Shown here: positions 1 to 10,352 of the stretch, in pieces | How positions within the stretch are numbered: position 1 is the stretch's first letter | Layout of the letters: each line of letters opens with the position of its first letter | Assembly (NCBI GenBank): GCA_028693335.1 | Contig: JAQUVR010000019.1 | Span: 1-10,352 of the forward strand | Length of the DNA stretch: 10,352 nucleotides | Origin: Candidatus Iainarchaeum sp. | GTDB taxonomy: Archaea > Iainarchaeota > Iainarchaeia > Iainarchaeales > CSSED10-239 | Direction of reading: 5' to 3' | Notes under the pieces: generated by a model | Databases searched by the model: none | Seen by the model: only the letters and a program-made list of their open reading frames with translations | What the model was told of the DNA's origin: nothing | Made by a program: the position numbers and the translations under genes

Positions 1-3000
1 TGTTGGTGTATCAAACATTTGAAAAGGACCAACATGCTCTAATGCTTTATTTAATTTATCAACATTATCTTTTGCCTTGTCATTATCATTATCAGGTTGA
101 GCCTTAAAATCAATAGCAACCTCTTTATTATCACAACCATTTGTTGCATCAAGGTCTTTGTTTAATGTTGCTTTTAGGTCAGAAATATCTGCACCATTAG
201 TTACAGAAGTATATTCAACCCACATGATATAGCTTTTATTTTCAGAATTATAAATTAATTGACCTCTTTCAAACTGAACAGCAACATTATAACCAACAAA
301 ATCAGTATTTCCAGAATACACTAATTTTGTAGATCTGTTTCCTGCTAAAATAATTGCCTTTGCATTTGCTCCATCAGCAATCTTTCTTGGTGTACCTTCT
401 GCAACTATTCTTCCATTATTTGGAGTAAGATCATAAGCTGTTGATGGATGAGCATTGTTAGCCATCTTTACTGGACCTAAATAATCAATTAAGTTAGTTA
501 TATTTGCTGGAATTTCAATACCTGTTTGATTCTTATACCCAGTTTTTAAACAATTTAAAAATGCTTGATCCTTTACAATAAAATTACCATGACCATCCAT
601 TTCAAATAACTCTGTATTACCATCAGGAACTGGAATATAACTTAGACTGTGTGGAATAACTTTTGCAGGTATTGCAAGATTATCAGCAATTAAACGAACA
701 TAATCTTTATTTTGTGAAGAAATAATTGTTTCTGTTATTCCTTTTTCATCAGTTACTATTAACTCTCCAGTTTCTTTATTAATCTCTAAAGTTATATTAT
801 TAGTCTCATCTCTTAAAACTTCAACACCTTTATCAGAATAAACACTTGCTCTACATTTTGAACCTGCACCAAGCTCTACAAAAAACAAATTACCTTTTAC
901 CTTTGAAAATGTGTTTCCACCAGTAGTTACTTGTGCTTGAGCAATTGGATATTCAACCAATTTTTGATCAGCAAATTTTTTGATTTCATCAGCACCAGCA
1001 GAAACTGTTTTTTCAAGTTCTGTACCTGCAGTTAAATTTACTAAACCTTCTTCTAACTTTTCTGTACTTTCTGTAATACTTTCAGCAATCTTATTTTTAG
1101 AATCTTCTTTTAATCTTTCATCAGTTGTTTTAGATACAAAAATGTGAGTATAATAACCTTCTTGATCATCAACACATTCACTTAATTGAGGAATAATAAA
1201 CATAGCTTGAGGAATATTACTTAATAAAGCTGGAGCTAACCATGTACTTGTATAAGAAGAAATTGCAATATATGCAACATGCTCTGCAAGAACAAGACCA
1301 CCAGCAACTCTATAATCTTTTGGTAAAACTTTACCAATTGGCATTCCTAAAAGATCCAAAGACTCTAATCTATTAGCACAAGTTTCTTCATTATTTCTTG
1401 CATGAAGAAGATTAATAGAATTCTCTGTTTTTGTATTTGCTAAGACACCATCATAATCTGTGTGATGTGAAAAACTTATTAATGTTTGACCTTTTTTTTC
1501 TATATTTGTTTTAGAAGTATTTTCAATAATGTAATTATTTGTTTTTGCAGTTGATGGAGTATTATAAGTAATATCCAAATCCTTAATTACAGAACTAAAA
1601 GCAGAATCTGTTGATAAAAGATTTTCTGTTGATGATTCTGGATTAGTAGTTCCTTCTGTGGTAGGAGTTAATTCTGTTCCTTCTGCAGGAGTATCTGGAT
1701 TTGTTATTTCTGAGGTGTCTGTATTTTCTGTTGGTAATTGACTCTCTAAATTAGACTCTTGTGTTACTCTTTGATTTTCAACCTCATTAGTTATTTCTTG
1801 TTTAATCCCATCAGTCAAAAGATCATGATCACCAAATTTATAAGTACAAGCAGCACCACAACCAGAACTTAGATTATCTGTAATTAAAACAATATCATCA
1901 ACTTCTGATCTTCTTATTTTACCCTCAGTTAAATTTACGATAAATTTATTTATAGACTGTCCCATTTGATTATCCATGTCACTAGTCAATTCTTTTGGAA
2001 TATAAGATGCCCAAAATAATGCAGAATTTAGATACTGCATAAATAGATCTCCTTGATCAGAACCTTCATTTGCAAAAAAATCAACATAAGCATCAGAATA
2101 CAATGGATTAGTTTGGTGCTTTATTTGTAAAGATGTATAAGTTTCAGGAAGTTGTAAAATACTATATTTTGTAAGACCAAGTCTTTCTCCATAAACAGTA
2201 TTAAAACCAGTCTTTAATTCCCAATAAAATAAATTCCAACCAAGCATAGCTGGACCCTGTGTAAAAAATCTTTGAAATGACTCCCCATTAAATTCTTTCA
2301 TTTTTTTGTTAATGCCACTAATACCTCTACCACTAACCCATTCTTTATTAGACAATGTTGTCATCATTTCTTGAGCATTAAAAGAAGCATCACTAAATTT
2401 TTTAGTTAAAAAACCATCATTTAAAGCATAAGCTGTTTCAATTGGATCAACACCAAAAACATCAGTAGGAAGATTAGATTTAATAGAACTAAAGGTTTCA
2501 AAAGTTCCAACACCCAAAGCATCCATTTGATTTTTATTAAATAAATGTGCTGAAATTTCAACAGCATTACCAGTTGATGGATCAATATATCTTATAAATC
2601 CATCTGGATTTAACTTAGCAAAAGCATCAGCAGCTGTAGTTCCTCTAACTGTTGCTAAAGAAGTTGGATCTGCAATAACTGATTGAACTTTTAATCTTTG
2701 AACAACAGCTGTAGAACCATCAGCAAAAGTTACTGGAACATCTTCAACTAATGCAGATTTTGCGGCTTTTGTTGTATATTTATTTCCACTAACCTGTATT
2801 TCAAAAGGATCACCAGCACCTCTTAACCCTTTATTACCAATACTTACAGCATCTCCTGAATTTGTAGAAATTACACTATTTGCATTAATTACTCTTCCTG
2901 TTCCAGGATCAATAATATTTCTATTACTTACAACAGATAAAGCATCAAGACCATCATCCCAAACAAAACCATTAAATGTTTGAGTTTTAAATGCCTTTCC

Positions 3001-4566
3001 TAATTTAACAGCATCAGCAGCAGTAGAAACAACAGCATCATATTCAGCACCAGTTAATGTTGTAGACCACATTCCTGCAGGAACATTACTTGCTTTTAAT
3101 GTTTGGATTTTTTTCATTCCACTAATATATGCTGGATCAGCAGTTCTTGCTTTTAAAATAGTGTCCGCAATTTTAAATTCTTCAAAATATTGTGTTGCAT
3201 TATCAGTAAATGCATATTTTTGAACTTTATTAAAACCATCATTATTTACAATACTTTTATGTAAAAATTCACTAGTTTTTTTCTTATCACTAATACCACC
3301 CAAAAACTCTTTCATCTCTGCATCAATCTTATTACTTTGAAGATCTCTAAGTCTTATATCTGGTGGATTTCTTCCAACAATACCTGCTGAATTTAAATTA
3401 GATATAAAATCATCAACATTATGTGTATACTTTTTTGCAGCAAGAGCCATTCTTGTTTGTTGAACTGGATGCCTCATTAGATTTACTGGATCATCCAACA
3501 AATTATCTAAAAAACCACCTTTTTTTATAACTCCTGCATTTCTTAATTTATTTGGGATATAATTATATATATTTAATGCAGTTTTATTTCTAAAAATTTT
3601 TGCAGCACTATTTAATAATAAAGGACTAGCTGAACTAAATACCATGTCAACAGTAAAATATTGATTAAACATTTTATCAAATAAAGAATAGGTGTTAATA
3701 TAACAATCCTCACCCCTACAAGTAGTTTGCATTTGAGCAGCAAAAGAATCTGTTAAAGCACTATTTTTAATTGCCTTATCCATTAACAAATTAAGTTTTT
3801 CAATCTCTACACCATTCAGATCATTTTCAGGATTATTTGCAACCTTGTTATAAAAATTTATTTCTTCTAAAGACATATCACTAAAAACACCAAGATCTAT
3901 ATCAGTAGAATAATCTTTATTTAAAACAGCTTCGCCAACCTCTTCCTTTAATTTATTTACTTGTAACCAATCAAGAGCATCTTTTTTTACAATACTAGTC
4001 TGTCTCCAGAAACCACTAGCACTATTATTTCTATAAAGACCAAGATCTTTTAAATAACATGCTGGATCTTGAGAAGTATCACATCTACCAAATCTTAAAG
4101 TTGACTCAAGGTTTATACCATAATAATGAGGACCAGTACACACCTTTCCAAGAATTGTTGGAACCTCTAATGGATTTATTGTGTGAGCAGGTATTTCTTT
4201 TTTTAGAGCAAGATCTCCAGCCTTTGCATCAGGTTCAGTAATTAAAACAGAATTTCTTTCAAGTGTTGGATCTGTTTTTTGAGGTGTTTGATTAGAAGTA
4301 ACAACTTCAGCAGTAAAACCTTTCAATAAAATAGATCTCCATAATTTTTCAACAGATTCTTCTGGTAATTCAGTTGTTAGACAACCAGTTCCAGAATCAG
4401 AGATTATTTTTGTATCTGTTACCTTTGTATCTGGATTTGCAAAATAAATAACATTATTATTTGTATTTGTTGTTGGTAAAGTTATTGCTTGTGCAAACAC
4501 ACTATTTATAAATAATGTTAAAAAAAACATTGTTATTATTTTTTGGCTAGTTTTATTAATATTCAT
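1..4566 (-). CDS. Giant secreted/surface protein. The N-terminal 1522 aa are present. The 5' end is complete and the 3' end lies beyond the window start.
   Basis: I translated the minus strand by hand in the frame of ATG 4566-4564. All 1522 codons down to base 1 are free of TAA/TAG/TGA. An upstream in-frame stop sits at 4596-4594. The ORF is absent from the supplied track, presumably because it has no stop inside the window. The N-terminus MNINKTSQKIITMFFLTLFINSVFA|QAITLPTT has a basic n-region, a hydrophobic core and a small-residue cleavage site, as in a Sec-type signal peptide. GTGA lies 6 nt upstream of the ATG as a weak SD. The gene starts 22 nt downstream of the 185-aa membrane-protein gene. 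I recognised no named domain. Confidence 0.85.
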   Translation of the reverse strand, partial: MNINKTSQKIITMFFLTLFINSVFAQAITLPTTNTNNNVIYFANPDTKVTDTKIISDSGTGCLTTELPEESVEKLWRSILLKGFTAEVVTSNQTPQKTDPTLERNSVLITEPDAKAGDLALKKEIPAHTINPLEVPTILGKVCTGPHYYGINLESTLRFGRCDTSQDPACYLKDLGLYRNNSASGFWRQTSIVKKDALDWLQVNKLKEEVGEAVLNKDYSTDIDLGVFSDMSLEEINFYNKVANNPENDLNGVEIEKLNLLMDKAIKNSALTDSFAAQMQTTCRGEDCYINTYSLFDKMFNQYFTVDMVFSSASPLLLNSAAKIFRNKTALNIYNYIPNKLRNAGVIKKGGFLDNLLDDPVNLMRHPVQQTRMALAAKKYTHNVDDFISNLNSAGIVGRNPPDIRLRDLQSNKIDAEMKEFLGGISDKKKTSEFLHKSIVNNDGFNKVQKYAFTDNATQYFEEFKIADTILKARTADPAYISGMKKIQTLKASNVPAGMWSTTLTGAEYDAVVSTAADAVKLGKAFKTQTFNGFVWDDGLDALSVVSNRNIIDPGTGRVINANSVISTNSGDAVSIGNKGLRGAGDPFEIQVSGNKYTTKAAKSALVEDVPVTFADGSTAVVQRLKVQSVIADPTSLATVRGTTAADAFAKLNPDGFIRYIDPSTGNAVEISAHLFNKNQMDALGVGTFETFSSIKSNLPTDVFGVDPIETAYALNDGFLTKKFSDASFNAQEMMTTLSNKEWVSGRGISGINKKMKEFNGESFQRFFTQGPAMLGWNLFYWELKTGFNTVYGERLGLTKYSILQLPETYTSLQIKHQTNPLYSDAYVDFFANEGSDQGDLFMQYLNSALFWASYIPKELTSDMDNQMGQSINKFIVNLTEGKIRRSEVDDIVLITDNLSSGCGAACTYKFGDHDLLTDGIKQEITNEVENQRVTQESNLESQLPTENTDTSEITNPDTPAEGTELTPTTEGTTNPESSTENLLSTDSAFSSVIKDLDITYNTPSTAKTNNYIIENTSKTNIEKKGQTLISFSHHTDYDGVLANTKTENSINLLHARNNEETCANRLESLDLLGMPIGKVLPKDYRVAGGLVLAEHVAYIAISSYTSTWLAPALLSNIPQAMFIIPQLSECVDDQEGYYTHIFVSKTTDERLKEDSKNKIAESITESTEKLEEGLVNLTAGTELEKTVSAGADEIKKFADQKLVEYPIAQAQVTTGGNTFSKVKGNLFFVELGAGSKCRASVYSDKGVEVLRDETNNITLEINKETGELIVTDEKGITETIISSQNKDYVRLIADNLAIPAKVIPHSLSYIPVPDGNTELFEMDGHGNFIVKDQAFLNCLKTGYKNQTGIEIPANITNLIDYLGPVKMANNAHPSTAYDLTPNNGRIVAEGTPRKIADGANAKAIILAGNRSTKLVYSGNTDFVGYNVAVQFERGQLIYNSENKSYIMWVEYTSVTNGADISDLKATLNKDLDATNGCDNKEVAIDFKAQPDNDNDKAKDNVDKLNKALEHVGPFQMFDTPT
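1621..1800 (-). repeat. Low-complexity Thr/Glu/Asn/Pro-rich linker-coding segment inside the giant ORF (about aa 923-982)
   Basis: The translation reads QEITNEVENQRVTQESNLESQLPTENTDTSEITNPDTPAEGTELTPTTEGTTNPESSTEN. At the DNA level the plus strand shows a reiterated ttctg / tctgg motif every 12-15 nt. Confidence 0.6.
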
Positions 4567-4588
4567 TTTTTTCACAGATCCATATTTT

Positions 4589-5146
4589 TTATATTAATAT
4601 TAAATACAATAAAATTGCAATAATTTTTGGAAAAAGCAAATAAACAAAAAACACACATATAAAAGTAATTGTTAAACTTATCCAAAGATCAACAAAATTT
4701 AAAGACTGCTTTATTGCTTTTGATAATTTGCCTTTTTTGTTATAATGTCTTTTATTTAGTTTTTCATAAATAAGAGTTGTAATCATTTCAAATATTACAA
4801 CAATTGCTGTTAGCAATAAATTAACAACTAACAATCTAAAAATACTATATAAAAAAAATAAAATCAGATAATATCCAGAAACTGGCAGACCAGTATTAAT
4901 TATTAGAAAAACAAAATAAATTATTAAAAATATAAAAAGAACGACATAAGTTAAAAAAAACAAAGAAACAATATAACTTTTTTTTTCTCTTATCTTTGAA
5001 AAAGGATTTTTTAACCAATTAACAACAAATACAAAAGGAATAGCAAATATTGCAGAAAAGAAAACAAGTTTAATAAAAAACCACAAATAATTAAATAATT
5101 TTAAAAAGATATTAGATAGTTTTGTGCTTAATATTAATTGATCCAT
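4589..5146 (-). CDS. Small polytopic membrane protein (185 aa, about 4-5 TM segments), function unknown
   Basis: This is a complete ORF from the track. Long Phe/Ile/Leu-rich hydrophobic stretches are separated by Lys-rich loops (KNPFSKIREKKS, EKLNKRHYNKKGKLSKAIKQ). GAGGG (plus-strand ccctc at 5153-5157) lies 6 nt upstream of the ATG. The stop is 22 nt upstream of the giant ORF start, so the two are probably co-transcribed. Confidence 0.7.
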   Translation of the reverse strand: MDQLILSTKLSNIFLKLFNYLWFFIKLVFFSAIFAIPFVFVVNWLKNPFSKIREKKSYIVSLFFLTYVVLFIFLIIYFVFLIINTGLPVSGYYLILFFLYSIFRLLVVNLLLTAIVVIFEMITTLIYEKLNKRHYNKKGKLSKAIKQSLNFVDLWISLTITFICVFFVYLLFPKIIAILLYLILI

Positions 5147-5293
5147 AAAAAACCCTCATAAATATAAAATATATTTAAACAAAAGCTTTATATATATAAT
5201 ATTTATTATATCATATAAACAGAAAAGTTAAACTATTTAAAAATATTTAGATTAATAAGATTTATAGAGAAACTAAAAGAAAAAAGATCTATT
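5147..5293. promoter_or_regulatory. Divergent intergenic promoter region with several archaeal TATA-box-like elements
   Basis: This is the only sizeable non-coding stretch and sits between divergently oriented genes. It contains ctttatatatataa (5186-5199, near-palindromic and usable on either strand), atatttaaa (5171-5179) and tttataga (5261-5268). The last element is about 26 nt upstream of ATG 5294 and no SD is present, which fits a leaderless mRNA. TATA-like strings are frequent in DNA this AT-rich, so the exact elements remain unresolved. Confidence 0.5.
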
Positions 5294-5971
5294 ATGGAAG
5301 ACTTAAAAAATATTAAAAGAAGAGAAAGAAGATTCTATAGAAAAATAGAAAATGATAAGATAGAGTACGATATAAAATCAAAAGAAAATAATAATATTCC
5401 ACAAAATAACTTGCCAGGAGCAACTCCTGAAAAAAAAGAAATTATTGAAAATATATTATCAGAAATAAAAAATAGTATTAATCCTGATATTGATGAAATC
5501 ACAGAAATTATATATGATCAATTAAATATCAATAACCTTCCAATAGATCAAGAAACAGTAAAAGAAGCAATCTATAGAAATAGACATAAAAATCCAGATA
5601 AAAAAACAGACGAATCCGAAAAAACAGAACCAGTCTTTTTATCAGAAAGAAAAGAACTAGAAACAGTTATTGATGATATCTTAGATCAATTATCAAAATC
5701 AGAAACATTAGAAAATAAATATCAACTAGACAAAAATAAAAAAGAAAACTCCGAAGAAAAAAATAGTAAAAGACCAAGAAGAGAAGAAAAAACAGAAGAG
5801 CCAAAAAAACCAGAAGAAAAACCAAAAGACGAAAAAAAACAAAAAACAGAAAAACCAAAACCAAAAAAAGAACCTAAAAAATCTGAAATGGAACTAGATT
5901 TTGGAGATGATGTAGATACTGAAGATCTTAATGATTCAGAATCAGATGATGATTTAGGATTAAAATTCTAA
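5294..5971 (+). CDS. Lys/Glu-rich, probably intrinsically disordered protein (225 aa) with a basic N-terminus and a strongly acidic C-terminal tail
   Basis: This is a complete ORF and the only plus-strand gene. The first ~130 aa have ordinary composition. They are followed by the charged low-complexity tract EEKTEEPKKPEEKPKDEKKQKTEKPKPKKEPKK and the tail EMELDFGDDVDTEDLNDSESDDDLGLKF. The antisense ORF 5667..5864 is Phe/Leu-rich junk, which supports the purine-rich strand as the coding one. Confidence 0.6.
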   Translation: MEDLKNIKRRERRFYRKIENDKIEYDIKSKENNNIPQNNLPGATPEKKEIIENILSEIKNSINPDIDEITEIIYDQLNINNLPIDQETVKEAIYRNRHKNPDKKTDESEKTEPVFLSERKELETVIDDILDQLSKSETLENKYQLDKNKKENSEEKNSKRPRREEKTEEPKKPEEKPKDEKKQKTEKPKPKKEPKKSEMELDFGDDVDTEDLNDSESDDDLGLKF

Positions 5972-6777
5972 TTTAGATTTTCTGAAATTAATTCACATCT
6001 TAATTTTTCAATATCTGAAGAGTCATTAAGTATAAGATTTGATGAAATATCAACTGTTGCTGGCCAAATTGCAAAAGTTGTATTAACAGCAACATCTGTT
6101 AATGTTGTTTCTGGCGTATAATATTGAAAACGCATTGGAATTGATGACGAATATATCTTATTTGCCTTAGATATTATAGATCTCACTATAGTATAATCCT
6201 GTGGGTTACAAAGATAATAGCTATAAGGATTATTTGAATCAATTGAATAAATTTTTCTATATTTTGCAAGATTTGGTGTTTGATCAGTAATGTCCTCATA
6301 ATTTGTAAGTTTTAATAAAAAGAAAATATATTTTTCATCAGCATCATAAATATAAAAAACATAATCATAATTATTTAATGGACGCATAATTGATTTAACC
6401 ATGTGATATAAATTAAACTTAACAATATCATCATAATCAGGATTACCAGCAGCATCAGCAATTCTCATTTGATTAATATCTGAGTTTTTTCCAATTAATT
6501 TGTCTGGATAATAATCATGTTTAACAGCAGTCATCAAATAATCAACTTCTTGACCAGATTGATAATTTAGATCATAATTTAATGGAATAGAGCTATAAAA
6601 AATAGTTCTCATAGCAGCATTTGCATACTCCTTAAAATAAAGATCAGAAATACTTTGATCAACTCTATCTCCATAAGAAGAAGAATATCTAAACATTAAC
6701 ACAGCCAATGTTACAATAATCATTAAAAAAAATAATGCATCTGTAACTGCTGCTTGACCTTTTTTTTTTCTAAACAT
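5968..6777 (-). CDS. Pilin-like protein with an archaeal class III (prepilin-type) signal peptide, 269 aa
   Basis: The N-terminus is MFRKKKG|QAAVTDALFFLMIIVTLAVLMF: a short basic leader, a KGQ cleavage motif and a hydrophobic helix. The Tyr/Asn/Asp-rich extracellular part has 2 Cys and N-x-S/T sequons. It is the last gene of the operon, 20 nt downstream of the previous gene. Confidence 0.75.
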   Translation of the reverse strand: MFRKKKGQAAVTDALFFLMIIVTLAVLMFRYSSSYGDRVDQSISDLYFKEYANAAMRTIFYSSIPLNYDLNYQSGQEVDYLMTAVKHDYYPDKLIGKNSDINQMRIADAAGNPDYDDIVKFNLYHMVKSIMRPLNNYDYVFYIYDADEKYIFFLLKLTNYEDITDQTPNLAKYRKIYSIDSNNPYSYYLCNPQDYTIVRSIISKANKIYSSSIPMRFQYYTPETTLTDVAVNTTFAIWPATVDISSNLILNDSSDIEKLRCELISENLN

Positions 6778-6797
6778 ATTTTCTCATTTTTAAAAAA

Positions 6798-7295
6798 TTA
6801 TCTCCAAACAACAACATATAATCTTGCTGGTTTGATATATAGATCTTTTTGAGTAGTTGTTGGATAATGATAAATAATAATTTCACTGTTTGCTCTTGTA
6901 ATAAAATCTGTAATATTAGAAGTATTACATGCATATAATTCATTAGAATCATCAATTTCTTCCTTTAAAATTTCAGATTCAAGATTTTCTTTATCCAACA
7001 CAACATAATTACTAGAATTAAGATCTAGATCAACCAAAAAAGCATTCCAATTATGTTTTGTTTGAACCTTACTACAGGTTTTTTTAAAAGAATCTAAATT
7101 AAGAATAACTGGTTCCTCTTTCATAATTGCAGAAATATTTATAACTTCTGTTTTTAGGGAATAAAGATCTGTGTTATTTTTATAAACATTATAAGTATTT
7201 AAAAAAACACTAAAAAAAATCATTAAACCCAAAAATATAGGAATTAAACTTGGTAGATCATCACCAATTGCACCAATAAAACCATATCTTGTCAT
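6798..7295 (-). CDS. Pilus-operon protein with an N-terminal hydrophobic anchor (165 aa) and a non-canonical leader
   Basis: The N-terminus is MTRYGFIGAIGDDLPSLIPIFLGLMIFFSVFL, with a possible RYG|F processing site that is not the KGQ type. The extracellular part has 2 Cys and about five N-x-S/T sequons. It ends in the beta-strand-like LYVVVWR. It starts 13 nt downstream of the preceding gene. Confidence 0.65.
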   Translation of the reverse strand: MTRYGFIGAIGDDLPSLIPIFLGLMIFFSVFLNTYNVYKNNTDLYSLKTEVINISAIMKEEPVILNLDSFKKTCSKVQTKHNWNAFLVDLDLNSSNYVVLDKENLESEILKEEIDDSNELYACNTSNITDFITRANSEIIIYHYPTTTQKDLYIKPARLYVVVWR

Positions 7296-7308
7296 AAATA
7301 ATCATATT

Positions 7309-7986
7309 TTAACTTGTTGGAGCCTCTGAAGATATATTTATTGTTAGATTAGTTACTGTATTTAAACAATCAATACCTTCATCATTAAGCAACATATCCC
7401 GCACCTCATTTCCTTGATTACAGGTGTAGATTCCATTTTTATATGCACATGGAAAAAAATAAATATTTGGTTTTCCATCTTTAATTTTTTTTACAAAAAA
7501 TATTTTATTATCAATAGAGTTTGATTTAAGAGGATCATAATGAACAAATGTTTCATCAGTAACTTTACAAATACTTTGATTACTTTGACAATCAGAACTG
7601 TAAAAATTAACTGGGCCATTAAAATCAATATCATAAGCAGCATAAATTGTGTTGTTGTTTTTTCTTCTATCCATAATTGCTAAAACAATTCTATTTGTGT
7701 CACTTGTAATCTCATAATAAGAAAGATCAATTTTATATTTTATACTAAACATATCAGAACCACCAGAATTGGTGTAAATCTTATCAGGCAAATTTAATTG
7801 CTTTACTGTACAATAACTATTACTCTCAATACCAGTTTTAATCTCAGTACCAAGTTTATAAACCAGTTCAAAACTTTGTCTAGTTTTCATATTTGAATTA
7901 ACAGTTGCCATAAAAAAAATAACTATAGATGCAATAGCAGTAACAAAAATTAAAAGATTCATTTTTGATAAACTAAATTCAATCAT
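7309..7986 (-). CDS. Pilus-operon protein with an N-terminal hydrophobic anchor (225 aa), Cys-containing extracellular domain
   Basis: The N-terminus is MIEFSLSKMNLLIFVTAIASIVIFFMATV, a single hydrophobic helix with no clear G/A at -1. There are 6 Cys plus N-x-S/T sequons. The start lies 4 nt after the upstream stop (cataaaggtATG), which suggests translational coupling. AAGGT sits adjacent to the ATG. Confidence 0.65.
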   Translation of the reverse strand: MIEFSLSKMNLLIFVTAIASIVIFFMATVNSNMKTRQSFELVYKLGTEIKTGIESNSYCTVKQLNLPDKIYTNSGGSDMFSIKYKIDLSYYEITSDTNRIVLAIMDRRKNNNTIYAAYDIDFNGPVNFYSSDCQSNQSICKVTDETFVHYDPLKSNSIDNKIFFVKKIKDGKPNIYFFPCAYKNGIYTCNQGNEVRDMLLNDEGIDCLNTVTNLTINISSEAPTS

Positions 7987-7990
7987 ACCT

Positions 7991-8605
7991 TTATGCTCTT
8001 TTCTTTCTAATTAAACAAACCTTTTGTGTACCATGTCCTGTTTGTGCACCAGATTTAAAGGCTCTATAATTACCTGGTCTTATAGTTGTAATAGTTGTGC
8101 CTATATTTCCAGAAACAATTGGGTTGATAACTTCCCATTCTAATTCTTCCTCTGTATCAACACATTCAGATTGAGAACCAAAATCAATACTTGTTGGAAG
8201 ATCCATACATATTGGATCTATTGGTTGAAGCCTTATAGATTTTTGTGTATCTTCATACACATATTCCAACAACAAACAAGTATTACCACCCCCACAATAA
8301 GCAGTACATCTAGATGGATCATTATATGTGTTTAATTGAACTGATTCATAAATTTCATTAAAACAAGCCTTTGTTTGAAAATTAATATTTCTTATTACTA
8401 GATCAGAACCCAGAACAACCTCTCTTAATGCCTCTTTAAAATTACTAAGATCAGATCTTTTATTACCAATACAAACATTTTGAGAAAGATTCTTAAGAGC
8501 AAAAGAACCAGCAACAATAACAAAACCCATTAATACAACTGCAACAAGTACTTCAAAAGGAGCACTTACTTGTCCTTTTTTTTTATTAAAAATATTTTTA
8601 GTCAT
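7991..8605 (-). CDS. Pilin-like protein with an archaeal class III signal peptide, 204 aa, 8 Cys
   Basis: The N-terminus is MTKNIFNKKKG|QVSAPFEVLVAVVLMGFVIVAGSFAL, matching the KGQ-x-S-x-x-x-E-x-L pattern of archaeal prepilin/prearchaellin leaders. The C-terminus QKVCLIRKKRA is paralogous to that of the 8891..9427 gene. Confidence 0.8.
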   Translation of the reverse strand: MTKNIFNKKKGQVSAPFEVLVAVVLMGFVIVAGSFALKNLSQNVCIGNKRSDLSNFKEALREVVLGSDLVIRNINFQTKACFNEIYESVQLNTYNDPSRCTAYCGGGNTCLLLEYVYEDTQKSIRLQPIDPICMDLPTSIDFGSQSECVDTEEELEWEVINPIVSGNIGTTITTIRPGNYRAFKSGAQTGHGTQKVCLIRKKRA

Positions 8606-8663
8606 GTTCTACCAATAAAATAGATAAGAAAAAGAATTTAAAAAAGATCTGTTTTAGAAAAAT
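8606..8663 (-). terminator. Oligo-T-rich spacer downstream of the mini-pilin gene; possible partial (attenuating) archaeal terminator
   Basis: On the minus strand, T5 (8662-8658), T6 (8645-8640) and T5 (8633-8629) all fall within a 58-nt spacer. This is the largest gap inside the operon. Oligo-T tracts are the known archaeal termination signal, but they are also common in AT-rich DNA. Confidence 0.3.
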
Positions 8664-8861
8664 CTAAGAAGTTTGTGCAGCAACCTGAGTTGCAGGTAAA
8701 TTTGCAAGACTTGTTTGAGTTTTTACAGATCTGCTAAACATTGGTTTAATTACTGCAATTAAGACAATTGCAACAATTGCAACAATAACAAGCATATAGA
8801 GAGTAGAAGCAGAATCTGTTTGTGCCTTTTGATCTTTTAATATTTTTTGTATAATATTCAT
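8664..8861 (-). CDS. Mini-pilin: 65-aa class III signal-peptide protein and candidate major filament subunit
   Basis: The sequence is MNIIQKILKDQKA|QTDSASTLYMLVIVAIVAIVLIAVIKPMF followed by a 24-aa Ser/Thr/Gln/Ala tail. It has a basic leader, A at -1 and Q at +1, then a very hydrophobic helix. It has no Cys. It carries the best SD in the window: AGGAG (plus-strand ctcct at 8872-8876), 10 nt upstream of the ATG. Confidence 0.7.
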   Translation of the reverse strand: MNIIQKILKDQKAQTDSASTLYMLVIVAIVAIVLIAVIKPMFSRSVKTQTSLANLPATQVAAQTS

Positions 8862-8890
8862 ACTTCTCTAACTCCTTTTATATATTAAAC

Positions 8891-9427
8891 TTATGCTCTT
8901 TTTGGAAAGACTATACAAACTTTTTCACTTGAAAAATCTGTAAAACGACTTTCACAAAGTGATGCCCCATCTGGAACTTCACCAGTAAATTGACCTAAAG
9001 ATGCTTGCATTTCATCCTTATAATCACATAAAACACCAATTTGATATGAAAGTGTTGAACTACTATTGTAAGTTATACTTGCACCACTCTCACCAGAAAA
9101 ATTACTTCCAGGACTAACAATACAAACTTGTTGTCTACTTAAACCTGTTCCTTCAGCAAGAGCAGGAGCAGAAATCGAATCTCCGTTCTTAAATTTAACA
9201 GACTCTGTATATCTTAAAGATCCAACAGAATTTATTTGAGATCTAATTAATGTTTGAGCACTCTCTTCTGGGTTTCCACCAATATTTACATTCTTCATAA
9301 TTATTGGAAGTAAAACACCTAGTAAAGCCAAAGCAACAACAGCAGCAATCAATAACTGAAATGTAGAAAACGCTTGTCCTTTTTTATTTAATTTTAATTT
9401 TTTCATAAAATTTTCAAAATCTATCAT
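8891..9427 (-). CDS. Pilin-like protein with an archaeal class III signal peptide (178 aa using the revised start; the ORF track extends to 9481)
   Basis: From ATG 9427 the leader is MIDFENFMKKLKLNKKG|QAFSTFQLLIAAVVALALLGVLLPI. GGGTGA (plus-strand tcaccc at 9432-9437) lies 4 nt upstream of this ATG. The 18-codon upstream extension (MLIYFVKYYLFKNKKGDI) overlaps the predicted promoter/5'UTR. The protein has 4 Cys and the C-terminus EKVCIVFPKRA. Confidence 0.8.
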   Translation of the reverse strand: MIDFENFMKKLKLNKKGQAFSTFQLLIAAVVALALLGVLLPIIMKNVNIGGNPEESAQTLIRSQINSVGSLRYTESVKFKNGDSISAPALAEGTGLSRQQVCIVSPGSNFSGESGASITYNSSSTLSYQIGVLCDYKDEMQASLGQFTGEVPDGASLCESRFTDFSSEKVCIVFPKRA

Positions 9428-9480
9428 AATGTCACCCTTCTTATTTTTAAATAAATAATATTTAACAAAATAGATTAACA

Positions 9481-9498
9481 AAATATATATAAAACTTG
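9481..9498 (-). promoter_or_regulatory. Archaeal BRE/TATA-like promoter element for the pilin operon
   Basis: The minus strand reads caaGTTTTATATATATTT, with the TTTATATATA core at 9493-9484. A TSS about 25 nt downstream (around 9462) would give a ~35-nt 5'UTR that contains the GGGTGA SD upstream of ATG 9427. Confidence 0.5.
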
Positions 9499-9513
9499 TT
9501 TTTTTAAATAATT

Positions 9514-9522
9514 AAAAAAAAA
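9514..9522 (-). terminator. T9 tract immediately after the stop of the 170-aa membrane-protein gene; candidate archaeal terminator
   Basis: The plus strand has A9 at 9514-9522, which is T9 on the coding strand, directly abutting the TAA stop (9525-9523). Oligo-T is the canonical archaeal termination signal. Confidence 0.4.
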
Positions 9523-10035
9523 TTAGATAATTCCATAAATTAAATTAAAAACATAAACAATTAATGTAGGAATTAATAACATAATTAAATAATCCCACAA
9601 CAATAATTTATGATCAGCCTTATAATATTCCCAAAGATATTCTGTTTTAGTCTTTTTCTTAACCTTTAAAAAATACCACATAGTTCCAAAAATCAAACAA
9701 GTCATTACCCAAATAATAGTAATTGCAAGAGATGATTCTAAAGACAATAACCATTTAGAAAAAAACAACCAACCTAATAATAAAAAAACAATTGTTATTA
9801 TTGAAGAAAAGATCATCTTAAAACCAAGCTTTGCAGTTTCAGTTTTAAAAATTCTTATTATTTTACTAAAGATCCAACTAATAATAAACAAAAGAGTCAT
9901 TAAAATAATTATTGCAAAAATTGTAACTAGTATAACTGTACCAATAAGATACCCAATACCCAAAATTAAAATAGCCAAAAAAATATAAAAAATTTTTGAT
10001 AATATATTTTTATTTTTCATAAAATCACCATACAT
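9523..10035 (-). CDS. Small polytopic membrane protein (170 aa, about 4-5 TM segments), function unknown
   Basis: This is a complete ORF. Hydrophobic stretches are separated by Lys-rich loops (SKIIRIFKTETAKLG, KVKKKTKTEYLWEYYKADHK). Its ATG (10035-10033) directly abuts the TAA (10038-10036) of the upstream gene. It has no GxGD-type aspartyl-peptidase motif. Confidence 0.7.
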   Translation of the reverse strand: MYGDFMKNKNILSKIFYIFLAILILGIGYLIGTVILVTIFAIIILMTLLFIISWIFSKIIRIFKTETAKLGFKMIFSSIITIVFLLLGWLFFSKWLLSLESSLAITIIWVMTCLIFGTMWYFLKVKKKTKTEYLWEYYKADHKLLLWDYLIMLLIPTLIVYVFNLIYGII

Positions 10036-10352
10036 TTAATTATTATAAATATCATTAACAGGTTTTTTATTAAAGAAAAAAACACAAAAAGTTGGACAAA
10101 TGTCAAAAGGATTATTATCATTTCTGGTTAGATCTGTATTAACTTCTGGATAAGAGGAATTAACCACATTTAGTCCATTATGCGCTGTTTGATTACAATA
10201 AACATAAACATCCATTTTTCTATAACTTCCTTTAATTGTAATAAATTCTCCATTATCGCTTTTTACGATCCCCGGTCCAGCAACAAAAGAAACGCAATCT
10301 TTGTTTAGACCACTTAGATTTTGAACAGTTCTTCTATCTAATTGTCCCCTAA
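10036..10352 (-). CDS. 3' end (about 105 codons) of a Cys-containing, probably secreted protein whose start lies beyond the right edge
   Basis: I translated this by hand in the frame that ends at TAA 10038-10036. It is open to the window edge. The sequence is ...RGQLDRRTVQNLSGLNKDCVSFVAGPGIVKSDNGEFITIKGSYRKMDVYVYCNQTAHNGLNVVNSSYPEVNTDLTRNDNNPFDICPTFCVFFFNKKPVNDIYNN*. The visible part has 4 Cys plus N-x-S/T sequons. It is not in the ORF track because it has no start inside the window. Confidence 0.65.
   Translation of the reverse strand, partial: RGQLDRRTVQNLSGLNKDCVSFVAGPGIVKSDNGEFITIKGSYRKMDVYVYCNQTAHNGLNVVNSSYPEVNTDLTRNDNNPFDICPTFCVFFFNKKPVNDIYNN

Follow-up and report, generated by a model that had tools for sequence, protein, structure and literature searches.

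A probable type IV filament gene cluster with a seven-gene prepilin block conserved across Iainarchaeota

The closest known counterpart of the genes analyzed here is the Epd pilus of Methanococcus maripaludis ('System 1'), in which the substrates of the peptidase EppA have leaders of 5-13 amino acids (aa) ending in Gly and followed by Gln at position +1, and the major pilin MMP1685 has 74 aa, or 62 aa when mature (PMC3875500). Like the pilin of Tad systems, the Epd major pilin has no globular head (preprint 10.64898/2026.04.22.720090). Some DPANN genomes contain type IV pilus (T4P) islands with unrecognizable pilins, according to Makarova, Wolf and Koonin (2019, PMC6393860). We studied six consecutive pilin-like genes (g1-g6) in a 10,352-nt stretch of DNA from Candidatus Iainarchaeum sp. 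(contig JAQUVR010000019.1 of assembly GCA_028693335.1, positions 1 to 10,352; hereafter, the window). Together with a further gene, g0, they likely constitute a seven-gene prepilin block in a T4P-like type IV filament (TFF) cluster conserved across Iainarchaeota (Diapherotrites). The original prediction, made from the window alone, had presented a candidate filament operon with no assembly machinery in sight; what the cluster represents is not a machinery-free filament but a known machine in an uncharacterized variant.

The cluster and the Epd system have several features in common. In both, the leaders are short, end in Gly and are followed by Gln(+1), several larger pilins of 130-300 aa are accompanied by a headless one of very small size (65 aa in the cluster and 74 aa in MMP1685), and the genes form a large cluster that includes an ATPase and a platform; moreover, System 1 has been reported in DPANN. 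Nevertheless, the cluster falls outside the Epd group by the features tested: its pilins have no match to PF04021 and no conserved Glu(+5), one platform gene of ~750 aa replaces the two of Epd, the ATPase has an N-terminal extension of ~370 aa, no EppA-like peptidase is encoded in the cluster, and seven fixed pilin families are linked to genes for an archaeosortase and a giant surface protein. Similarly, the Tad/Flp systems share with it a headless mini-pilin, Gln(+1) in some Flp pilins, and an ATPase, CpaF, whose structure is one of those most closely related to the cluster's ATPase (E=7e-26). They differ in the host, which is archaeal here, in the six further pilins with heads, and in the score of the mini-pilin g2 against Flp_Fap (PF04964), which is 13.4 bits with a cutoff of 32.2 (E=0.068; one of 140 pilin orthologs reaches E=0.0095); secretin, TadZ, and RcpA are absent from the annotated or labeled genes of the loci, although no specific search for them was made. 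Bacterial minor-pilin priming sets, such as FimU-PilVWXE with PilY1 in type IVa pili and GspH-I-J-K in the type II secretion system (T2SS), provide another analogy, in that pilin-like proteins which are not interchangeable stand in a fixed order beside a large Sec-dependent surface protein. In contrast to these sets, no sequence or fold similarity is seen here, and the giant protein differs from PilY1 in having no Pfam match at all, hence none to PilY1, and in being membrane-anchored at its C-terminus. Finally, the DPANN 'dark-matter' islands of PMC6393860 (Fig. 2A) likewise have an ATPase and a TadC-like platform beside signal-peptide proteins unlike known pilins.

All six minus-strand genes proposed from the window were recovered as consecutive open reading frames (ORFs) at positions 5968-9427, with gaps of 29, 58, 4, 13, and 20 nt. 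Four of them encode a class III leader followed by a hydrophobic helix, exactly as first read: KLNKKG↓QAFSTFQLL in g1, KDQKA↓QTDSASTLYML in g2, NKKKG↓QVSAPFEVL in g3, and RKKKG↓QAAVTDALFF in g6 (the arrow marks the predicted cut site). To estimate the background, we used 92 related loci, in which ORFs were called and labeled by iterated profile searches: an N-terminal [KR][GA] with a hydrophobic stretch occurs in 24 of 1159 non-pilin ORFs of at least 120 aa, and the form with Gln(+1) in none of them. As four of the six neighboring genes of the window have this form, the leaders are far above chance. The motif is kept in every pilin family of the block (41-77 orthologs each), which upholds the proposal of prepilin-like genes of an uncharacterized archaeal filament system; its commonest variants are QKG↓Q, KKG↓Q, ERA↓Q, and EKA↓Q, and acidic residues occur at positions +2 to +7, depending on the family. 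The start codon of g1 is preceded by a GGGTGA ribosome-binding site and, farther upstream, by a TTTATATATA element.

The products of g4 and g5 had been described as N-terminally anchored proteins with non-canonical leaders. Their relatives tell more. The N-terminus of g5 reads TRYG↓FIGAIGDDLPSLIP in the window, whereas relatives have KKG↓Y, QKG↓F, or RKG↓F at the cut site; judged from these orthologs, g5 is not merely anchored but is a predicted class III-type precursor that has lost Lys(-2) in the window. Its IGDDLPSLIP motif, in which 39 sequences show no variation at I-G-D-D, P-S, and I-P and hardly any at the two Leu, introduces Pro and Asp residues after the cut site but before the hydrophobic helix, an unusual arrangement for a pilin. 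In most relatives g4 starts with M-L-G↓F-(T/I)-L-S-K-L-N-L-L-I-L-V, that is, with a three-residue leader, and this N-terminus is reminiscent of the bacterial G↓FTLIE. In the window's clade (Ca. Forterrea relatives) Gly(-1) is changed to Glu or Asp (MIEFSLSK, MFDFALSK), and g4 of this clade probably stays uncleaved. Thus, the class III signal is seen directly in four of the six window genes and through orthologs in g5 and g4, and since the relatives of g5 have K-G↓F/Y and those of g4 have M-L-G↓F, all seven genes of the block can be considered prepilin-like.

The seventh gene, g0, which adds to the proposed set of six, is cut by the right end of the window. It has 77 orthologs, mostly with a K/S-G↓Q leader. 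Comparison of the head domains by hhalign relates one pair only, g0 and g1 (probability 94.6%, E=7e-8), which identifies g0 by sequence as the true paralog of g1. The two mid-size pilins initially taken for paralogs, g1 and g3, are not demonstrably so: their globular parts align at E=0.17 in hhalign, and the similarity found by BLASTP is restricted to the leader and the last 16 residues. Two, four, or eight conserved cysteines are present in the heads of g1 and g3-g6 (Table 1), and invariant or nearly invariant cysteines in a head fit an extracytoplasmic, disulfide-stabilized domain. In contrast, g2 is headless: its mature form (~52 aa in the window, ~40-60 residues across the family) consists of the helix and a short tail with an invariant KP-F (KPMF in the window). 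For g6, an AlphaFold2 model built with 33 homologs (pLDDT 88.4, pTM 0.81) contains a 58-residue helix at positions 4-61 and an α/β head, a modeled architecture that is the classic pilin 'lollipop'. The g6 family has merely 210 representatives among 1.84 billion clustered proteins and is therefore small and lineage-restricted.

Pfam and NCBIfam scans agree with the initial statement that no ATPase, platform, or peptidase gene lies inside the window. The absence of machinery is nonetheless an artifact, because the window's boundary precedes the platform gene. The g3 product is encoded identically on JASEYN010000276.1 (GCA_030154545.1; locus L001), a 117-kb contig of a metagenome-assembled genome (MAG) with the locus at the contig end, and the g6 product is 97% identical to its counterpart there, so that the window represents a strain variant of this MAG. 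In L001 a 745-aa polytopic protein is encoded by a gene ending 14 nt before g0, which places the beginning of this gene ~0.25 kb beyond the right end of the window. The whole Pfam model T2SSF (PF00482) matches the copy of the window's clade (L001 and P0001, 99% identical to each other) with E=1.3e-3, and 51 of 65 members of the family match it at E<=0.01, the best with E=1e-6. The platform has 324 homologs; PF00482 is also present in those with ~45% identity, whose records bear the name 'type II secretion system F family protein' [Ca. Diapherotrites]; the AlphaFold model of the platform has a pLDDT of 82. Directly upstream of the platform, in 51 of the 61 loci with at least 2.6 kb of upstream sequence, lies a gene for a ~760-aa protein that matches PF00437 (E=5.6e-18) and has as its closest solved relatives the Archaeoglobus fulgidus secretion ATPase 2OAP (E=3e-29), CpaF, and FlaI. 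On this similarity it is a genuine secretion ATPase of the ArlI/CpaF type.

The conservation of the cluster was analyzed in a scan of one genome per GTDB species, which gave 152 relatives of the platform; synteny was derived from the best 80 of the 152 loci. The lineage-named records among these relatives are mostly from Ca. Iainarchaeum/Diapherotrites, a few being evidently mis-binned, and include the closed genomes CP045477.1 (Ca. Forterrea multitransposorum) and CP064981.1. The platform of CP045477.1 is 62% identical, and Forterrea, which is classified in Ca. Iainarchaeota, kingdom Nanobdellati (DPANN), belongs to the same clade as the window. The recurring order is ATPase, platform, g0-g6, an opposite-strand protein, sometimes an extra membrane protein, a protein with five transmembrane segments (5-TM), and the giant protein of 1500-1700 aa. 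Forty-one loci extend 6 kb or more beyond the platform on its downstream side; g0-g6 are strictly colinear in 23 of them, and six further loci of the 41 deviate only by a pilin of another family, L004_259, with a g1-like leader in the slot of g1. Other loci contain duplications or an inversion (L016, L047, L077), and in L042 and L049 g0 is followed by none of g1-g6, the 5-TM and giant genes of L042 standing right behind g0. The ancestral layout would have comprised an opposite-strand archaeosortase gene, the ~760-aa ATPase, a T2SSF platform of ~750-780 aa, g0-g6, an opposite-strand gene for a small cytoplasmic protein, and the genes for the 5-TM and giant proteins. The window's clade departs from this layout in that the ATPase is not adjacent any more and a further membrane protein, TM170, follows g0. 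Because its left end falls inside the giant gene and its right end inside g0, the window displays the pilin block only.

Table 1. Features of the window and of related loci mentioned in the text. Positions without a locus name refer to the window; the arrow marks the predicted cut site.
Feature	Position	Strand	Description
Giant surface protein	1..4566	-	first ~1521 of 1703 aa; Sec-type signal MNINKTSQKIITMFFLTLFINSVFAQA; full gene L001:9703-14814
TM185	4589..5146	-	185-aa ~5-TM protein, always directly before the giant gene; 37 orthologs
Convergent protein	5294..5971	+	225 aa, acidic/Lys-rich, cytoplasmic; overlaps the g6 stop by 4 nt
g6	5968..6777	-	269-aa prepilin, MFRKKKG↓QAAVTDALFFLMIIV; two invariant or nearly invariant Cys
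g5	6798..7295	-	165-aa prepilin-like protein, MTRYG↓FIGAIGDDLPSLIPIFLGLMIFF; two invariant Cys
g4	7309..7986	-	225-aa pilin-like protein, hardly any leader (MIEFSLSKMNLLIFVTAIASIV); four conserved Cys
g3	7991..8605	-	204-aa prepilin, NKKKG↓QVSAPFEVLVAVVLMGF; eight invariant or nearly invariant Cys in the head
g2	8664..8861	-	65-aa mini-prepilin, KDQKA↓QTDSASTLYMLVIVAIVAIVLIAVIKPMF
g1	8891..9427	-	178-aa prepilin, MIDFENFMKKLKLNKKG↓QAFSTFQLLIAAVVALALLGVLL; two invariant Cys in the head
TM170	9523..10035	-	170-aa polytopic membrane protein between g0 and g1; only in the window's clade; no Pfam or NCBIfam match
g0	10036..10352	-	C-terminal 105 codons; 183 aa in L001, leader KLNQKG↓DSEAFESFRMLIAF; runs off the right end of the window
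Platform	L001:1430-3667		745-aa polytopic protein
Archaeosortase family (example)	L005:5922-6470		~180 aa
Short ATPase	L008:3851-5053	-	T2SSE type
Short ATPase	L009:5290-6699	-	T2SSE type
ATPase with one intein	L022:1256-5035		1259 aa; LAGLIDADG homing endonuclease
ATPase with two inteins	L072:4465-9912		1815 aa; LAGLIDADG homing endonuclease
Pilin-like protein with HINT domain	L089:684-2108	-	474 aa, class III leader KTKQKA↓ITPIVATILLVVV; C-terminal HINT/pretoxin-HINT domain

The window is AT-rich (~19-33% G+C over 500-nt windows), and scans for tRNAs and Rfam families found no feature in it. An opposite-strand gene stands at the position of the convergent protein throughout the phylum. Eighteen orthologs of this protein conserve the N-terminal KRRERRFYRK and the C-terminal DDDLGLKF, and a function in regulation or in assembly is conceivable for it; the protein at the same position in L005 has Zn-ribbons in place of the acidic tail. 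TM170 has no conserved acidic residues and is thus not a peptidase, and the 37 orthologs of TM185 show no conserved residues of a catalytic type. Between TM170 and g2, the slot of g1 is filled in one subclade (L004, L010, L011, L014, L015, and L029) by one to four copies of the L004_259 family (107-277 aa), some of them with the g1-like leader KKG↓QASSTFQLLIAAIVA, and is a hot spot of pilin turnover. Two independent assemblies of the lineage, the NCBI MAG (L001:1-270) and a Logan run (L093:1-256), both stop at the same gene ~1.4 kb upstream of the platform, which suggests a repeat or mobile element at this point, in keeping with the transposon-rich Forterrea relatives. Inteins were observed in the ATPases of two loci (Table 1) and were inferred from length for the ~1260-1300-aa ATPase ORFs of L028, L040, L054, L056, L063, L065, and L075.

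The giant protein adjacent to the block had been described simply as secreted. Its linkage to the pilin cluster is real, since the two are syntenic across the phylum. The protein itself is not simply secreted, as it ends in a PxxPE-TM-basic anchor, where TM is a transmembrane helix. Outside the window, in L001, this C-terminus reads GGFNIPLAPE-FVFFSLYVSIILCGFLLIY-TKKPFKKRK, and of four other full-length giants three end in NPFNLPS(L/M)PE-TM-basic and the fourth, in L024, in the variant PWNLPSLPE-TM-KKKK. The Pfam scan of the L001 protein found no domain. A short motif followed by a transmembrane helix and a basic cluster is the shape of exosortase/archaeosortase sorting signals. Outside the window's clade, 39 distinct loci have a gene of the exo/archaeosortase family immediately before the ATPase and on the other strand; the 41 ORF hits include two from the near-duplicate locus L006. 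The sortases score 37-42 bits against TIGR04178, above the cutoff of 23, and fit no named subfamily. Thus, with the ArtA/PGF-CTERM-type systems the cluster shares both a C-terminus composed of a short Pro-containing motif, a transmembrane helix, and a basic cluster, and a TIGR04178 gene; it differs from them in that the giant C-terminus matches no known sorting-signal model and in that, among members of the window's clade, the 10 kb around the cluster contain no archaeosortase. With this signal-like C-terminus, the giant protein may be an archaeosortase substrate. A speculative and rather unlikely extension is that the seven-pilin TFF machine, coupled to this unassigned archaeosortase and the giant sortase-signal protein, forms a lineage-specific composite apparatus, whose filament or pseudopilus would present or deploy the giant adhesin to make contact with surfaces or host cells; if true, archaea would be using TFF in a way that has not been described for them.

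The same genes could be read without a long adhesive pilus. A short pseudopilus of the T2SS or bindosome kind might deploy or hold the giant protein, or push it through the envelope, the protein being processed by the archaeosortase. Seven one-to-one pilin families in fixed order recall the GspG-K and FimU-PilVWXE priming sets, and the giant gene and TM185 stay with the core of ATPase, platform, and g0 where g1-g6 are missing or inverted (L042, L077, L059); the tripartite C-terminal signal and the flanking sortase genes point in the same direction. Yet such archaea have no outer membrane that would demand a secretion piston, no solute-binding or other recognizable domain is present in any of the pilins, the giant C-terminus departs from the known signals, the sortase is missing near the cluster in the window's clade, and the link between giant protein and pilins is one of synteny alone. 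We consider a dedicated pseudopilus unlikely, though it is the most plausible of the alternatives, followed by a decaying remnant and then by an archaellum.

Several observations weigh against the assignment to a TFF cluster. No pilin family has a PF04021, PF07790, archaellin, Flp, or PDB-sequence match. In particular, the profile check proposed at the outset was run: PF04021 (Class_IIIsignal, DUF361) matches neither the six pilins of the window (E<=1) nor the 140 orthologs of the seven families (E<=0.01), and the models PF07790 (Pilin_N) and PF01917 (archaellin) match no pilin family. No Pfam model matched the 140 orthologs consistently, the six window pilins gave nothing at E<=1 except the sub-threshold Flp_Fap hit of g2, the NCBIfam scan of the window proteins gave no match, and PDB sequence-profile searches with g1-g5 returned nothing significant (the best, PilE1 with E=0.11 for g3, covers the N-terminal helix only). 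The globular domains, described from the start as unrecognizable, are so by profile as well. The head of g6 has no fold neighbor in PDB (best E=0.028, TM-score <0.2). In the Foldseek comparison of the platform model with PDB, the PilC model 3jc8_Ca ranks third with an insignificant E=0.46, and no second T2SSF repeat was detected by hhalign of the platform halves or by Pfam on ten C-terminal halves. The division into major and minor subunits is drawn by analogy alone, and the relative evolutionary rates of the pilins singled out no major subunit. Furthermore, one subclade of six loci (L027, L050 = CP064981.1, L054, L062, L071, and L082) keeps only g0-g2 of the block. No GxGD-type motif of a prepilin peptidase occurs in any ORF of the 92 loci (±10 kb), and TM170, TM185, L005_336, and L005_400 have no conserved acidic residues; prepilin peptidase genes are commonly unlinked in archaea. 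Finally, in most of the window's clade the ~10 kb around the platform contain no T2SSE ATPase, and none was located in the genome of the window itself, as the two assemblies of its lineage break off ~1.4 kb upstream of the platform. The ATPase that was to be searched for is present, however, in the sister clades.

In the subclade restricted to g0-g2, the ATPase and platform are kept, and g3-g6 are replaced by unrelated genes, for example, an ORF of ~345-380 aa. These replacements may be unrecognized substitutes, or the system may be a simplified one.

The lack of an adjacent ATPase is confined to one lineage: the ten loci without it are exactly the window's clade. All ten members with upstream sequence lack the ~760-aa ATPase at its ancestral position, and in this clade ferredoxin and AP-endonuclease genes face the platform. 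In L007, the closest relative whose upstream sequence reaches 9.8 kb, this region contains no ATPase. One could suppose, therefore, that the cluster of this clade is a decaying or re-purposed remnant, in which prepilin-like proteins serve only as membrane-anchored surface proteins and build no filament; the loss of Gly(-1) in g4 and of Lys(-2) in g5 of the window would accord with decay. This is very improbable. Every gene is intact, and in five members of the clade, with platforms 61-68% identical, the pilins are 33-61% identical (family means 39-51%) and retain their motifs. Moreover, in L008 and L009 a short T2SSE ATPase of 400-469 aa (2OAP/FlaI-like, E=3e-45), which has no platform gene of its own, is encoded on the opposite strand three to four genes upstream of the platform. 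It is plausible that the short ATPase replaces the ~760-aa one in the window's clade. Furthermore, the report on the closed Forterrea genome mentions a 'secretion-related ATPase' (PMC5905446).

The short ATPase (400-486 aa when L087-L090 are included) stands next to a gene for a ~93-aa TFIIB-like Zn-ribbon protein and elsewhere is a stand-alone gene on low-GC contigs; a metagenome scan with it gave six loci, none with a linked platform. Near the short ATPase of L089 is encoded the protein with a class III leader and a C-terminal HINT domain listed in Table 1, which would be a pilin-like carrier of a module for self-cleavage or toxin delivery.

A divergent archaellum (motility) operon, suggested by several class III-signal proteins in the cluster and by the FlaI model as the best NCBIfam match of the ATPases, is effectively excluded, since the ATPases reach 138 and 214 bits with the FlaI equivalog model, whose cutoff is 550, PF01917 is matched in no Pfam scan, ArlH/KaiC-like and ArlC/D/E/F/G proteins are absent from the scanned or labeled genes of the loci (no search was aimed at them), and the headless mini-pilin and Gln(+1) are traits of Epd and Tad. 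A match to bindosome components or to another well-characterized system was also looked for, with a negative result: no solute-binding or other domain occurs in any pilin family, and the BasE ATPase model scores 76 bits with a cutoff of 1000.

We therefore return to the interpretation of the cluster as a TFF machine and propose how it may work. The N-terminal helix would insert the preproteins into the membrane, and an unlinked class III signal peptidase would cut after Gly/Ala(-1), leaving Gln(+1), or Phe/Tyr in the case of g5. The ATPase-driven platform would then lift the helices from the membrane and polymerize a surface filament or a short pseudopilus. The g0 and g1 products may be variable, surface-exposed subunits, because their slot has been duplicated in some lineages and replaced in others, whereas g3-g6, which are one-to-one orthologs each with its own Cys-stabilized head, may be minor pilins of an initiation or tip complex. 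A set of major and minor subunits on the Epd pattern, as originally suggested, is still the best analogy; by comparison with Methanococcus EpdE and bacterial Flp, the headless g2 would be the likeliest bulk subunit, an assignment that we regard as possible but doubtful. The role is likely to be attachment to surfaces or host cells, and the filament could bind surfaces and host or partner cells in concert with the giant surface protein.

The kind of system is already known, since DPANN islands with unrecognizable pilins have been noted (PMC6393860). Literature searches revealed no paper describing the seven-family phylum-wide layout, the leaders, the g6 fold, or the linkage with archaeosortase and giant genes; the survey of Makarova et al. 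(2016) leaves Diapherotrites outside its coverage, and the 2026 TFF survey treats DPANN in general terms only. The layout and the sortase/giant linkage thus appear to be undescribed. Nothing is overturned by this analysis, which adds an uncharacterized branch to a well-known machine family.

DPANN archaea are ultrasmall, and many of them rely on other cells; little is known of how they attach to these partners and interact with them. The Saccharibacteria are ultrasmall bacteria analogous to them, and their type IV pili have been shown to drive episymbiosis. Iainarchaeota gain here a concrete phylum-wide candidate apparatus, consisting of seven pilin families with exact cleavage motifs, a platform, an ATPase, and a giant protein. 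As the seven families are invisible to Pfam and NCBIfam, each MAG has them annotated as 'hypothetical'; profiles of these families would make it possible to recognize and count such systems, and would provide targets for proteomics, antibodies, and cryo-electron tomography.

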